A DNA stretch of 64,000 nt from a plasmid. Location of the stretch: assembly GCF_057098645.1 (NCBI RefSeq), contig NZ_JBXSPU010000002.1, one strand, 5' to 3'. Shown here in pieces: positions 1-6,000 of this stretch. A program made the position numbers. Each line of letters opens with the position of its first letter. The stretch's first letter is position 1.

Positions 1-3000
1 CCATATAAATATTATTAAATGCATTAGCGCTATTTAATACGACAATGCCATTGCCAGTTTTCAGATTATTACCTTGAGAAACATTAACATTCAGCGTACC
101 TGCACCAATTTTATGCAGGTTATCACCCGCAACCCCTTTCACATTCCAGTCAACTGTAGTATTTTCACCAATATCCAGCCCGGCACCTTTGAAGGTTTTA
201 TTATTACCAGTGACTGTGTAATGATGCCCGGAATCAAAAATGAGACCTCCAGAGCCAATGTTTACGTCATTGTCGAAATTAATACTTCCACCACCACTAA
301 AACTAAGATCTTTATAGTTATTATTAATTTTTTCAAGTTTAGTTGCGTTGCCATTTAATGTATACCTATCACTATTAAGTGATAATGTGTTATCATTTAT
401 CTGGATATTCTGAGTAAATATATTTTTTAGATTATTAACCGTATTGTTATCATACTGGTTTAATATTGACCAAACATCTTTACCTGAAGATGCTATCCCG
501 TATAGAGTACCCAGCATCACCCATTCTTTTTTTATATTATCATAGAGATAAAAACCGGAACCACTGTCCCCACCGGTAGTTTCATTATAAAAAGGAGTTG
601 TGTTATTATATGGTCTTTTGTTATCCCAGTTTAACTGAAACATTGATGCACTTAACAGAAGGGGATTATACGACTGTTCTGTGTTATACGAAGCACCATT
701 CTGAACGACTGAAGTAACGCCGGCTCCAACCCTGAAACCAACGATTTTTTTTTCGCCATTGATATCCACACCATAACGCTCAAGAGCATCATGGCTATTG
801 AGAGAGAAGTCTACAGAATTTTTTACACCTGAAGTTTCAACAACAAACTTATCAAGTCGGGTTACTGCAAAATCCCCCTTTGTCATCCTGTCTACATATT
901 TATATGAGCTTTGTCCCCAATTTTGAGTGCTTACTGCATGATGAACTGTTCCGTTATGAGTGGCAGTGACACTATATGCTCCACCAATAGATGTGGTTGC
1001 TCCTTTATTTGATGCTGGCGAGAAATCAGGAATTGGAACTTTTGGGAAATTAAACGACTGACCATTCTTGAGTTGAATTGATACATCGGTTGCTCCTGCT
1101 TTAAATACCCCCTTATTTTGTGCAAGGTCTAAATAATCTCTAGCCCATACATTATTAATATTTAGTTGAGCGGACTGTGCGGTGCTAAAAAAAACACCAC
1201 ACAGTGATAAATTTAATAATGTCAAAATACTGCTGCGGACTGTTTTCTTAATGACTCTGGATGCCAGTTCGGATACTACAATAAGTCCACCGGTTACATG
1301 ACTGTATTTTAATGAGTAAATTTTATTCATGGTTTTGTATATGGCGTTTTCATCACCAGCCTCAAGATCCATTTCGAAGCAATTGTGATGAAAACAGCTC
1401 TGTTATTTATAAATAAAGCTCTCAGCCATAAGAGCCATACACCAATACCAATACCCCATGAAAAACAAAAAATCAACCAGACAAACAGAATGAAAACAAA
1501 AAATAAATCATTTGGTTTTATTCTTTTTATTAAAAACATAAAGTAATGAGAGGTATTCAATGATGCCAGTGTCTGCGATACAGTAAGGACGCTCAAAATT
1601 GGTGTTTGGATCTCCTAACGTTAATATAATCAGTGTGCCTGCTCTAAATAGCTGTGCCGAATACCGCTACACTTTTACCAGCCCATGTTTACCACCGGGG
1701 AATGGGCTCACGGTTTCCATAAAATAATGAACCTTTTTCAGCTGTTCGCCACCGCTGTAGGAACCCGCGAGTCGAGTCAGCCGGAGAGAATTTCACTCCC
1801 TGGCTGCTCATGGAACCGTACGTGACACTCTCGCGTCATACGGCTCTTGATCACTCATTCGATGCACGTAGTAAATACCAGTGGACAAATAGCTTCGGAT
1901 ACTCCTTCCTTACCCGTCAGCTTTCGCTGAGCCTTCCGGTTCGAAAGTCTGTATTTAGACAGCATCCACTTGAGCAGACGTGACTGCATTGCACTCCACA
2001 GTCGATAGTTGAAATTTCTGGACCAGAACTTTCCGTAGTACCCGATCCAGCCTCTCACTATCGCATTGTAGCGCCTCGCAAAATCCAGCAAGCGCTCAGC
2101 TGTTGAGCGATGTATACGCCACTTCTTGATTGTTTCTGTTATTTTGCGCATTGCTGCATTTGACGCACCCGGCATGCATTTTCGGTACAGTTCGCCTTTG
2201 AAATTCTTCAGCGTACGCACTTTGAAGTCATATCCGAGAAAGGTGAAACTCGTTGCGACGTTTCTCCTTTTAAACGTGTCAATGTAGGCGATATTCGTTT
2301 TCCCTGCATTCAGGGCCAGCCCGACTTCCGAGAAGCGCTCCGATAACCTGTTCTTCAGCCTTGTTGCATCACTCATTCGTGAACAATGTACTACAATATC
2401 ATCAGCGTACCTCTCAAACGGTACCCCCCGATATTCTCTTTCCATCCACAAATCAAATGCATAGTGAAGGAACAAGTTAGCAAGTAGCGGACTAATGACC
2501 CCGTCCTGCGGAGTGCCTCGTGTTCGGGTTATTAATTCTCCATTTTCACAACTCTGCATTGGCGCTTCCATCCAGCGTCGACAGTACAGGATGACCCATT
2601 TAGGCATCCCGTGGTGTTCCAGTGCTTTGAGCACCAGATCATGTCTCACATGGTCGAAAAACGCACTGATGTCCACTTCCAGTATCCAGCTATAACGCCA
2701 GCACCGGATGGCACATTGCTTCAGAGCGTCATGAGCTGATTTGCTTGGTCGGTAACCATATGAATCAGCATGGAAAATCGGGGCAAGCTTTTCTTCCATG
2801 AAAAGTTTTATCGCTCCCTGAGCAATTCGATCGGATACTGTTGGGAGCCCCAGAATGCGCTCCTTGCCATTCGACTTCGGGATCCGTTTTTCCAGCACTG
2901 GTGGCGGAAACCATGTTCCCGAACATAGCCGGTTCCAGATCTTGTATAGATTGCCATCACGTTGCTGGTCGAACATTTTCAAAGTCTGTCCGTTGCATCC

Positions 3001-6000
3001 GGGGGCTCCCTTGTTGCGACGCACATCCAGATATGATGCCCAGACCAGTGCTTTTGGTATTTCAAATGATTTTCGTTGCATCGGTTACGTCATCCCCTTT
3101 TGGGTTGTGTCTTCTGCAATGAATGTGATCCCCATCCCTTCTCTCCAGACCCATTACAGATTTTTCATCACTACTACGAATGAGTCCGCCCCTGTTTCCC
3201 GATACGTGCCGGAAACAGGTTCTCACGTTCCCTGAGATGGTCTGGCTCGGGCTCCTGCTGCCTTCACACCGGATGCTGCGCAGTCAGTAAGCAGGTGACT
3301 TCTGCGCTTGTCAGGGGACGGCTCTACGGCCCCATTTTGACATCATCTAAGATTTCGATGCATCATCGGACAGTTTACTTTCGTTCAGCTTCCCGAACCC
3401 CACGTGACAGTCGATCTCTGCCTTTTCCCGAGTCGCTCACCACCTCATTCCTTAGAATGAAGCAGCACCGGGTCGTTTGGTCAGTGCTCCTGTAAACCCT
3501 GACCGGAGGGCCCACCTCCACCCACCTCAGAGCATGGATAACTTATGCTGCAATTTTCATATTGTTGCCATAATCCAGTCCCATTCACGTTGTGAGAGCT
3601 TCTCAGCACCAACAGAGAGCAGAACTGTATCAATGCTTTTGCGGGTCAACATAAAGGGATGGGGCGTGCGGCAACAACAGGACTAACGGGGCCGGTTTTC
3701 AATTTGCAGCCGCCAGGCTGCCGTGGTTCCTTAGGGCGGTGCCCATATTACGAGATAAGATCAAGCAATGAGTTAAGTTATAACAGGGGCCTGAATATAT
3801 AGGGGGACAATATCTTGAAAAATATCAGTAAAATTTTAAAAAAAACATGCAAGTATTGATTTTTACAGAGTGGCAATAAAAAATTAATAGAAAACAAACG
3901 CGCATGAAGGTGGTTAATGCTTACATCTAAAAAAGAAATGCAGTGTTCTAAAAATAAACAAGAGGATAATTTAACGTTATTGTTAACCAATTACATTTCA
4001 TATCAGAATATAGTTATATTTACGGGGGGAATCAGTTTAAGATAAGAAACAAGAAAGAATTCACCGAATACACAACAGGACCAAAATCATTGTTTTTTTT
4101 GGCAAAAAATACTCGCTGGGACATGGAAGTTGTCGGAATCGATAATAGTAATCCGTACAGGAAAATTATAATTGATGATGCATTAATTAAGTTGCTGCAT
4201 TCAATATCATCTGATGACTCTTGTTATGTAAAAAAAATATATTTACCGCGGACCTTAATGAAACGCAATTGAATATAGTTTACAATATAATTGAAGATAC
4301 AAAACACTCAGGTAACAACAAAAAGCATTTAAGATATTGTATTTATTATCTTTTTTAATAATCATAATGATATAGTTAATGTCATCCTTAGTGCTTCATC
4401 TACGAGCATCGTAGACAGGGTTATAAAAGTAGTTGAGTTGGATATATCCAAAAACTGGAAACTAGGCGATGTCAGTAGTTCAATGTTTATGAGTGACTCT
4501 TGTCTGAGAAAACAATTAAGCAAAGAGAACTTAACCTTTAAAAAAATCATGTTAGATATAAAAATGAAACATGCTTCTTTATTTTTAAGAACTACTGACA
4601 AAAACATAGACGAAATATCTTGCTTGGTTGGTTTTAATTCCACGTCATATTTTATTAAGGTATTTAAGGAATATTACAACACAACACCAAAAAAATATAA
4701 TGGCATTTATTCTATTACACAAAGCACATTGCCATAATTTTTTAGAGATATTTTGAATCTTATTTGCAATGAGCACTCGAAATGAAGAACAATTTGAGAG
4801 AAGAGAAAGAAGTCGTTCTTGATGGATGTATAAATGTATTGTCATTACCTTCAGAATGGAAAGCAATTACACCTAAAAAAATAATGTCACATCGGAGATA
4901 ATAGTGTTTTTCATTCCCCCCAAGGCTTCTTATCACATTATATTAAAATATGATAACACAAAACATTGCGAATTATTTTTTTCAGACCACATCACCGGCG
5001 AACAAGATGTTATATATTCACAAAGTGCTTTTTTCTCACATGTGATTAATCATATAATAGCTTTAGTTGATGTTCTTAATAAGAAAAGTTACGCAAGCAA
5101 TGTTATAAAATTTTTGATAACGATGGAAGGAGGCGGTGATATTCTTTCTGAATCAAAAAGAGCACCATAGTTTATCAAGTAAAAAATGACACATACACTA
5201 CTATAAATAAAGGTAATTATGGAAATAAGAGATAAAAAGGCGAAGTACTTGGAAGAAAAAGGGTTTTATAGACGAGCTGCAGATCGCTGGGCAGAGATAA
5301 TGGTACATTTATCTAGTGACGCTGAGAGAAAATTGGCAGCTCAAAAGTGTGCATTCTGCATTAATAAATCTCTACGTAATAATCTGCAAGCAGATAACTA
5401 TAGCGACATAAAACAAGGAGTTTATAAAGCATATAAGAAAATGGGGCTTGTAAATGAAAAAATATTTAGAAGCTACAAGGAAAATTAAATTATAACGTAG
5501 ATTGAGTCTAAATAACTGTTCGGAATAGTAGATCTCTCAGGGGGATCTCAGTCCGGTTTATGCTAAATAACTGCTCCTAATACCGCTACACTTTAGCCAG
5601 CCCATGTCCCCGACCGGGGAATGGGCTGACGGTATGTGCACCGTAACTGGCGCTGTTCTTCAACTGTGGTGGCTGAAGAACGACTAAGAGGTGAAAGTTC
5701 TCCACACACCCGGTGAGGGGAAGTGTTAGCGGAAGGCAAGGGTGTTCATCGCGAGGTGAAATCTGAAGGAAGCCGGATGCAAAATGCTGGCCTGACGAAC
5801 AGGAAGCGGTTAAGGCGGTGCAGCGGGGTAAGGTGGTATACATCACCAAAGCCTGATACTCACACGGAACGCTGTGACGTAGAGCCGACAGGCATAAGCA
5901 GGAAAGTCGCGCGAATTACCCCGGGAGATCTGCCGTCCTGCCAGTGTGCTACCGGCGTCGTAAGGCGCAGGGATGGGGCGGCAGAAGTCAGCCGACGCCG

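Follow-up and report, generated by a model that had tools for sequence, protein, structure and literature searches.

The window, i.e., the whole 64,000-nt stretch of plasmid DNA analysed here (NCBI RefSeq assembly GCF_057098645.1, contig NZ_JBXSPU010000002.1), carries two copies of a short motif, each close to a group II intron. An earlier reading made from the sequence alone (hereafter, the sequence-only reading) had described a repeat of ~55 nt with internal dyad symmetry, one copy just beyond the 3' end of an intact minus-strand intron and the other where a plus-strand, intron-like region begins, and had proposed either a shared intron homing target or part of an unrecognised mobile unit. 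The repeat is present at both sites and is in fact longer: in a repeat search of the window, 1644-1714 and 5563-5633 form a direct repeat of 71 nt with 85% identity. A 54-nt degenerate pattern derived from the earlier motif matches exactly two places (0.00 expected from 100 dinucleotide-preserving shuffles), and a third, related copy of the first 20 nt of the repeat lies at 5508-5527. We interpret the motif as the right-hand terminus of insertion sequences (ISs) of the IS630 family, present here as two truncated copies, of which copy B was invaded by an intron and copy A was rearranged; we assign a probability of roughly 90% to this explanation as a whole, i.e., to the identity of the motif together with the histories of both copies. 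Intron 1 and a perA/perB/perC block resembling that of the enteropathogenic Escherichia coli (EPEC) plasmid pMAR2 stand between the two copies, and over its first 9 kb the window matches the E. coli plasmid pCAU16175_2 (IncFIA/FIB/FIC) with 100% identity. The surroundings are a typical graveyard of ISs and introns beside the per virulence regulators of an EPEC adherence factor (EAF)-type IncF plasmid. The features discussed below are the following (D1 to D6, intron domains; ORF, open reading frame; a slash within a sequence marks a junction):

1644-1732, minus strand: copy A, IS positions 1 to ~89; right repeat CTAAATAGCTGTGCCGAATA (including the target-derived C-TA), stop codon, and the codons …KKVHYFMETVSPFPGGKHGLVKV before the stop
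1733-1742, no strand assigned: rearrangement junction between copy A and the IS66 exon; the parents share microhomology (…GTTGCCAC and …GTTCGCCAC), from a comparison by eye
1743-1770, minus strand: 28 nt of the native 3' exon of intron 1, from an IS66-family tnpC; TCGCGGGTTCCTACAGCGGTGGCGAACA (codons for AGSYSGGE)
1771-3572, minus strand: intron 1, E.c.I3-like, without its first ~19 nt, including the GTGTG start and the 5' splice site
3573-3730, no strand assigned: unrelated plasmid sequence, to which intron 1 is joined at its truncated 5' end
5508-5562, plus strand: 55-nt fragment of an older IS630-family left end (left inverted repeat, IRL), downstream of perC and also in pMAR2
5563-5635, minus strand: copy B, ISSpu2-like, IS positions 1 to ~73; right terminal inverted repeat, stop codon and last codons
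5598-5628, plus strand: copy B stem-loop, CAGCCCAT-G-TCCCC GACC GGGGA ATGGGCTG, as a DNA fold
5636-6111, plus strand: 5' part of intron 2, D1 to D4a and the first ORF codons; starts GTGCACCGTAACTGG (short 5' variant)
6112-6990, minus strand: IS66-family fragment interrupting intron 2; tnpA at 6239-6937 (annotated 'IS66-like element accessory protein TnpA')
6991-7388, plus strand: 3' fragment of the intron 2 ORF, maturase domain (Pfam GIIM, 6.8e-22), aligned to the full-length copy at locus L006
7383-7574, minus strand: internal fragment of copy B that continues 5563-5635 in order and orientation (ISSpu2 positions ~283-476)

A 101-nt query around copy A matched IS630, ISEc33 and ISSpu2 elements in 1,842 plasmids. 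The match begins at the element boundary in three intact elements used as reference, and there the transposase coding sequence is on the opposite strand with its stop codon ~24 nt inside the end. The motif comprises the right terminal inverted repeat, the transposase stop codon and the last ~17 codons (…FMETVSPFPGGKHGL.KV and stop). The IS630 of Shigella boydii (locus L002, 1602-2760) has CTAAATAGCTGCGC..AATA at both ends, inverted, and BLAST of this element against the window aligned IS positions 1-108 with 1644-1752 (87%), 1-71 with 5563-5633 (87%), 281-476 with 7379-7574 and, for the left end, 1104-1159 with 5563-5508 in reverse orientation. Both window copies align from IS630 position 1, and the terminal repeat is conserved across a ten-member family alignment, as expected of an IS630-family right end with its inverted repeat at the element boundary. 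The IS630 family belongs to the Tc1-mariner superfamily.

Like IS630, ISSpu2 and ISEc33, the window copies have (i) the terminal inverted repeat CTAAATA(A/G)CTG…AATA; (ii) a stop codon ~24 nt inside the end, after the C-terminal codons …METVSPFPGGKHGL.KV; and (iii) a C-TA junction at a CTAG target, with a nucleotide identity of 85-93% to the named elements. Unlike those elements, they lack the transposase gene and the left end, and measure 89 nt in copy A, and 73 plus 192 nt in copy B. The transposase of the reference ISSpu2 contains DDE_3 and helix-turn-helix domains (Pfam); of the corresponding gene, the window has the last codons with the stop and the internal fragment at 7383-7574. With no intact transposase ORF in either copy, both are remnants. 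Among the plasmid matches, copy A is nearest to IS630 (91.6%) and ISEc33 (89%), and copy B to ISSpu2-type ends (91-93%, with the alignment running through 5635). Judged by these sequences, copies A and B are two different, diverged (85%) and truncated elements, not a duplication.

With a direct copy on either side of intron 1 and perABC, the arrangement might suggest the end of an unrecognised mobile unit carrying introns or per genes, or else ordinary intron sequence. We consider either possibility extremely improbable. The motif ends complete IS630-family elements that hold no intron; both window copies are right ends in direct orientation and are thus unable to act as a composite transposon; and pMAR2 carries perABC without copy B. 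The motif as intron sequence is ruled out by independent copies of both introns, which are found elsewhere without it. Because the motif is a known IS terminus (IS630/ISSpu2/ISEc33), the unrecognised mobile unit falls away, as the sequence-only reading had itself foreseen for such a case.

The insertion of copy B can be followed by comparison to pMAR2, which serves as an empty site. After the 55-nt left-end fragment, pMAR2 reads …TTTATGCTAGCTGGTC…, whereas the window reads …TTTATGCTA/AATAACTGC… there; the empty site is TTTATGCTAG/CTGG, i.e., …ATGCTAGCTGG… in pMAR2 versus …ATGCTA/AATAACTG in the window. This comparison identifies copy B as a standard IS630-type insertion at the TA of CTAG. The CTAG used lies within the left-end fragment at 5508-5562, so that the remnant of one IS630-type element harbours another. 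An ISSpu2-like element thus transposed into a CTAG downstream of perC with the usual TA junction. The flank of copy A, …GCTCTA/AATAGC, agrees with insertion at CTAG/TA as well; the second TA of either copy is not visible, since the far ends are missing, and the far flank of copy B (CTGGTCAATCG…), when sought in the window, was absent. Upstream of this site, perC (5219-5488) is intact, and perB is shortened to an 88-aa ORF (4904-5170). There is no full-length perA ORF in 3900-5170; fragments at 4090-4272 (80%) and 4438-4737 (96%) correspond to PerA of pMAR2, and the deposited record annotates hypothetical fragments only.

The IS sequence of copy B stops at the insertion point of intron 2, between 5635 and 5636 (IS position ~73) and 7 nt after the IS stem-loop. 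At the corresponding stretch, ISSpu2 reads GACGGTATCC and …GGGCTGACGGTATCC, and the window reads …GGGCTGACGGTAT/GTGCACCGTAACTGG across the IS/intron junction. Beyond the intron, IS sequence resumes at ~7383-7574, where it meets the ORF fragment of the intron at a microhomology, AGCGTA. Because copy B resumes collinearly on the far side, the intron must have sat inside the IS. The junction between the ORF fragment and IS position ~283 removes D5, D6, the 3' intron junction and IS positions ~74-282. The IS66-family fragment at 6112-6990, which also contains sequence read as a partial tnpB and a putative terminal repeat ending at 6990, replaces ~830 nt of the intron ORF. A later IS66 insertion and two deletions thus destroyed intron 2 and most of the IS.

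The sequence-only reading had placed the start of an intron-like region on the plus strand at copy B, and this is borne out, an intron starting directly after copy B at 5636; the covariance-model search that it had called for detects group II domains at both loci (RF00029 and RF01999 for intron 1, RF02001 and RF01998 for intron 2). The 5' part of intron 2 scores 131 bits with RF02001 and 70 bits with RF01998. A search with RF00029 gave no match on the plus strand of the window, where intron 2 is not a complete ribozyme; D5 and D6 are present in the full-length relative L006. The reverse transcriptase (RT) of L006 aligns over its whole length with the RT of GsI-IIC, for which a structure has been solved, at 468 bits, compared to 151 bits for LtrA and 118 bits for an RT of class B (IIB). 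It has the Pfam domains RVT_1 and GIIM only, with no endonuclease domain; of these, the window keeps the maturase part. The motif AGGAA at 5767-5771 (within AAUCUGAAGGAAGCC, 5759-5775) is invariant in all eight copies, and a conserved AGGAA in the epsilon-prime bulge is a class C feature (PMC1702495). By its sequence, the intron 2 lineage is a class C (IIC) group II intron.

Of 5,426 complete E. coli genomes, 1,242 carry relatives of intron 2; 1,151 of the 1,371 places concerned are chromosomal, and in those copies that were inspected the RT ORFs are split or decayed. The lineage also has full-length copies, for example that of E. fergusonii p22C065LT3. Seven independent copies of the lineage start at the same nucleotide as intron 2 of the window. 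Six of the seven are preceded by a recognisable hairpin and then a T-rich spacer, and all end T(A/G)T/GTGCG. Three relatives sit directly after a gene on the same strand. The junctions of three copies that lie behind a hairpin are as follows, and the others resemble them:

Relative downstream of grpO: 5' exon AAAAAGCCAGCAG…CTGCTGGCTTTTTGTTAT, intron start GTGCGCCGTG
Relative downstream of an alcohol dehydrogenase gene: 5' exon ACGCGTAGTG…CACTACGCGTTTTTTTGT, intron start GTGCGCCGTG
Relative between bcsB and bcsC: 5' exon GAGCTCCGTCT…AGACGGAGCTTTATTGT, intron start GTGCGCCGGG

In the window, the D1 loop UAUACAU contains AUAC, which can pair with GUAU of the exon as a putative 4-bp interaction between exon-binding site 1 (EBS1) and intron-binding site 1 (IBS1). 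In class C introns, this pairing is short (3-4 bp) and EBS2 is absent. The putative EBS1 loop fits IBS1 in four of six copies, including one covarying case (L007), in which the loop is CACAAAU (ACAA) and the exon ends in UUGU.

The 5' end of the lineage comes in a short and a long form, which differ by 19 nt (GCCGGGCATGGCGCGTAGC) located between two GCGCCG repeats (L006, L007, L012 and L014 compared to L008, L011 and L013; 5636-5650 in the window). Since both forms are found at independent terminator sites, the short 5' end in the window is intact; the possibility that intron 2 lost 19 nt from its 5' end is ruled out by the same observation, the short form being a normal variant. The small 5' hairpin appears to be dispensable, or to have been gained or lost during the spread of the lineage.

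The association between copy A and intron 1 is of a different kind. The sequence-only reading had put copy A just beyond the end of an intact intron; neither part of this description holds, because the 3' end of the intron is at 1771, with the 28-nt IS66 exon (1743-1770) intervening, and ~19 nt, including GTGTG, are gone from the 5' end. Intron 1 consists of D5/D6 (1771-1848), an RT/maturase ORF of 408 aa (1855-3081; Pfam RVT_1 and GIIM) and a D1 element (3403-3519), with Rfam scores of 54 bits for RF00029 and 92 bits for RF01999. Its RT scores 141 bits with GsI-IIC and 102 bits with LtrA, and shows no affinity to class C.

The boundaries of intron 1 are given by its relatives. A copy on a Shigella flexneri plasmid shares the window sequence from 3556 down to 1743, i.e., 28 nt past the 3' splice site, and then runs into sequence read as the C-terminus of IS66 TnpC (…HAAVLYSLIGTCRLNNVEPEKWL). 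The complete relative, on an E. coli O15:H11 plasmid (L015), reads …GGCCGGAAAAACTGGCTCT/GTGTGTCACGAAGGAGTAC TTATGGCAAC……CTGATTCGAC/TCGCGGGTTCCGGCAGC…; it starts with GTGTGTCACGAAGGAGTAC, upstream of the TTATGGCAAC shared with the window, and the same 28-nt exon follows the intron. Its exons join to GRKNWLF/AGSGSGGEHAAVLYSL, and a synthetic 92-nt sequence of the joined exons matches uninterrupted tnpC of the IS66/ISCro1 family at 98.9% in ~1,478 plasmids; the homing site of intron 1, thus, lies in tnpC of the IS679/IS66 family. In a Sinorhizobium relative (RT 46% identical), GTGTG starts 67 nt before the same D1 element. Taken together, the O15:H11 and Sinorhizobium starts indicate that intron 1 spans 3572-1771 in the window and lacks its first ~19 nt.

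Two other candidates for the 5' side of intron 1 were rejected. The segment 3573-3730 as its 5' exon is ruled out, because the intron is truncated there and the segment is unrelated plasmid sequence: it is 95.6% identical to sequence that precedes a recombinase gene adjacent to blaTEM-1 in ~1,400 plasmids, and the window copy has an internal deletion of 42 nt. The sequence AAATTGCAG at 3556, the Shigella breakpoint, as a non-canonical 5' end is ruled out by the O15:H11 copy, which has GTGTG 36 nt upstream. The point of truncation differs between the window copy and the Shigella copy. It should be noted that the S. flexneri copy (NZ_CP097832.1; L005 3317-3330), truncated 36 nt from the 5' end, is fused to sequence read as upstream IS66 tnpC (…VYVRDDRNAGS), which would lie ~540 nt from the normal homing site; such a fusion implies an internal deletion spanning the IS and the 5' end of the intron.

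The IS homology of copy A reaches ~1732, and the BLAST alignment extends to 1752 through microhomology. Copy A is thus an IS630-type right end that was fused, in a rearrangement mediated by microhomology, to part of an IS66-family transposase gene, and this part already held the E.c.I3-like intron at its normal homing site. The nearness of copy A and intron 1 is then an accident of rearrangement in an IS-rich region of the plasmid. E.c.I3 is reported to home into IS679, an IS66-family element, and to have fragments on Shigella virulence plasmids (PMC3522654).

The question of a hairpin target turns on the folding of the two copies. As single-stranded DNA, copy B folds with -15.9 kcal/mol (z = -3.96; none of 200 shuffles as stable), i.e., beyond chance, whereas copy A, with -7.5 kcal/mol (z = -1.19; 32 of 200 shuffles), does no better than chance; the internal dyad reported earlier, thus, folds better than chance in copy B only. 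The same test gave z = -2.1 for IS630 and z = -2.4 for ISSpu2. Copy B differs from other IS630-family ends in its extra inner pairs (TCCCC with GGGGA), which form an unusually stable hairpin; an outer stem pairs ATACCG (5580-5585) with CGGTAT (5630-5635) and stops precisely at the junction with the intron. In the stem-loop, the arms AGCCCAT and ATGGGCT encode Ser-Pro-Phe and His-Gly-Leu, so that the dyad lies inside the SPF…HGL codons of the transposase C-terminus. In the alignment of ten right ends, uncompensated changes in the arms were found in four members (ISEc33, an O121 copy, a Klebsiella copy, and ISSpu2 with a G·T pair) and one compensatory stem change in E. albertii; this covariation test makes no case for a selected structure.

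If the motif were a shared homing target, both introns should have recognised the hairpin and inserted beside it. Both copies lie within ~60 nt of a group II intron end, and class C introns do target hairpins (PMC1702495). The introns do not, however, abut the motif in the same position and orientation: intron 2 (plus strand) follows directly after IS position ~73, whereas intron 1 occupies the other strand at a distance of 56 nt from the motif, and 28 nt of its own IS66 tnpC exon lie between the two. The RT of intron 1 (141 bits, compared to 468 bits for the intron 2 lineage) is not class C-like; copy A, besides its chance-level hairpin, lacks the TAT needed for IBS1 (it has GGTTT); and among ~3,176 IS630-type right ends in plasmids, the intron is present in one lineage only. 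We therefore regard a shared homing target as very improbable: intron 1 targets IS66-family tnpC, a piece of which separates it from copy A.

For intron 2, the suggestion that some introns insert next to hairpins, which fails for copy A and intron 1, holds at copy B, where a class C intron lies 7 nt after a hairpin. IIC introns lie after "terminator motifs … or other inverted repeats" with a spacing of 3-11 nt (PMC1702495), and the 7-nt distance of intron 2 from the hairpin at 5598-5628 is within this range. We infer that the class C intron entered the top strand by reverse splicing, 7 nt past the stem-loop of the IS, and that this hairpin stood in for the usual terminator hairpin, together with a 4-bp IBS1-EBS1 pairing (GUAU with AUAC).

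Several observations weigh against parts of this account. The IS630 hairpin is followed by GACGGTAT, with no T-run, which makes for an atypical class C site; intron 2 has lost its 3' junction, which hides IBS3 and the exact target; and the IS630/intron junction is a single event, so that placement beside a hairpin could be due to chance. Among the relatives, two decayed copies (L011 and L012) fit the proposed EBS1 poorly, and the flank of L012 has no obvious hairpin. For copy A, the likeness of intron 1 to E.c.I3 is drawn from the target and the distribution given in PMC3522654, not from a reference sequence.

The missing T-run and the single event would also be expected if the copy B/intron 2 junction were an illegitimate rearrangement like that of copy A, in which the hairpin had no role; in addition, the region is full of deletion junctions with microhomology, and breakpoints can coincide, as in the plasmid pHNSHP24-2, where an unrelated IS is inserted 1 nt away from this position. 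This alternative nevertheless seems unlikely to us, for four reasons: (i) the junction is exactly at the first nucleotide of the intron (GTGCA), in the short 5' form common to independent copies; (ii) the exon ends in GTAT, as in other copies, with a 4-bp fit to the EBS1 loop; (iii) the 7-nt spacing from the stem is within the published 3-11 nt (PMC1702495); and (iv) the sequence of the copy B element resumes collinearly on the far side. We thus retain insertion of the intron beside the hairpin as the explanation of copy B.

The plasmid pHNSHP24-2 (NZ_CP104790.1; L025 1031-1110) was considered as a second intron insertion at an IS630 end. Its IS630-family right end is broken 1 nt from the junction position of the window (…GACGGTATT/GTATGGGTCC…), and what interrupts it there is the end of another IS, which encodes an integrase-core type transposase and gives no Rfam intron signal; this candidate is ruled out, and we take the shared breakpoint to be coincidental.

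Whether the stem-loop of ISSpu2-type IS630 right ends is, more generally, a usable non-terminator target for E. coli class C introns is doubtful. The IS630/intron junction was found in nine plasmids and six complete E. coli genomes, all with the same block, i.e., in one plasmid lineage only; nine plasmids have the 9-kb block in full, and others match the window at 1-2270 only. A scan of 100,044 species genomes (one per species) for an IS630 hairpin followed by an intron start GTGYRCCG yielded nothing but three chance hits, in Roseibacillus, Phenylobacterium and a Caulobacteraceae bacterium, and the two that were inspected had no IS or intron context. If the generalization were true, class C introns could travel between replicons on IS630-family elements, and this would be natural IIC targeting by a DNA hairpin and a 4-bp IBS1 without a T-run.

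Each component of this locus belongs to a kind already known: the terminus of an IS630-family element, a class C intron with the behaviour of its class, and a fragment of an IS66-targeting intron. Intron 2 resembles the class C introns B.h.I1, GsI-IIC, Di.ze.I1 and So.gl.I1 in its RT lineage, the lack of an endonuclease domain and the AGGAA motif, as well as in insertion a few nt after a stem-loop with a putative short IBS1 (PMC1702495, PMC7306698), and most of its relatives lie after Rho-independent terminators, as is the case for class C introns. It differs from the named introns in that its stem-loop is inside the end of an IS630-family transposase gene, read antisense and without a T-run, and in the state of the window copy, which an IS66 fragment interrupts and from which D5, D6 and the 3' junction are missing. 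Intron 1 shares with E.c.I3 the fixed site in IS66-family tnpC and the presence of fragments on Shigella virulence plasmids (PMC3522654), and differs in the loss of ~19 nt at the 5' end and in the fusion of its exon remnant to an IS630 end.

A group II intron inside an IS630-family element has a precedent in RmInt1 of Sinorhizobium meliloti, which lives in ISRm2011-2, an element of the IS630-Tc1 family (PMC1802570). RmInt1 uses a sequence-specific site in the transposase gene via EBS/IBS pairing, whereas intron 2 appears to have used structure instead. The RmInt1-like intron in the window is intron 1 (RT 46% identical to a Sinorhizobium intron RT), and it targets IS66, not IS630.

The only, mildly new point is the natural insertion of a IIC intron after a hairpin without a T-run, inside an IS end. 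Copy B would be a natural case of a class C intron using an IS-end hairpin that has no U-tract, in agreement with published statements that IIC introns depend on structure more than on sequence. Copy A shows how closeness of an intron and a repeat can arise from rearrangement alone. The importance of these findings is limited: the motif is a catalogued IS terminus, and its setting is ordinary mobile-element debris.

The IS pile-up goes on to the right of the intron 2 region (7424-9473). A 260-aa ORF on the minus strand at 7424-8206, which runs into the IS630 fragment, resembles an IS91-family transposase, by eye only. It is followed by a 407-aa ORF on the minus strand at 8250-9473; an ISL3 family transposase is annotated somewhere under the 9-kb match in related plasmids. 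Farther along the window, Rfam identified two ALIL pseudoknots (frameshift signals of the IS3 family), CopA, FinP with the traJ 5' untranslated region, and sok (23547-23663, 42619-42735, 25767-25856, 43723-43834 and 48775-48951); CopA, FinP/traJ 5' untranslated region and sok are standard RNAs of IncF replication, transfer and maintenance.

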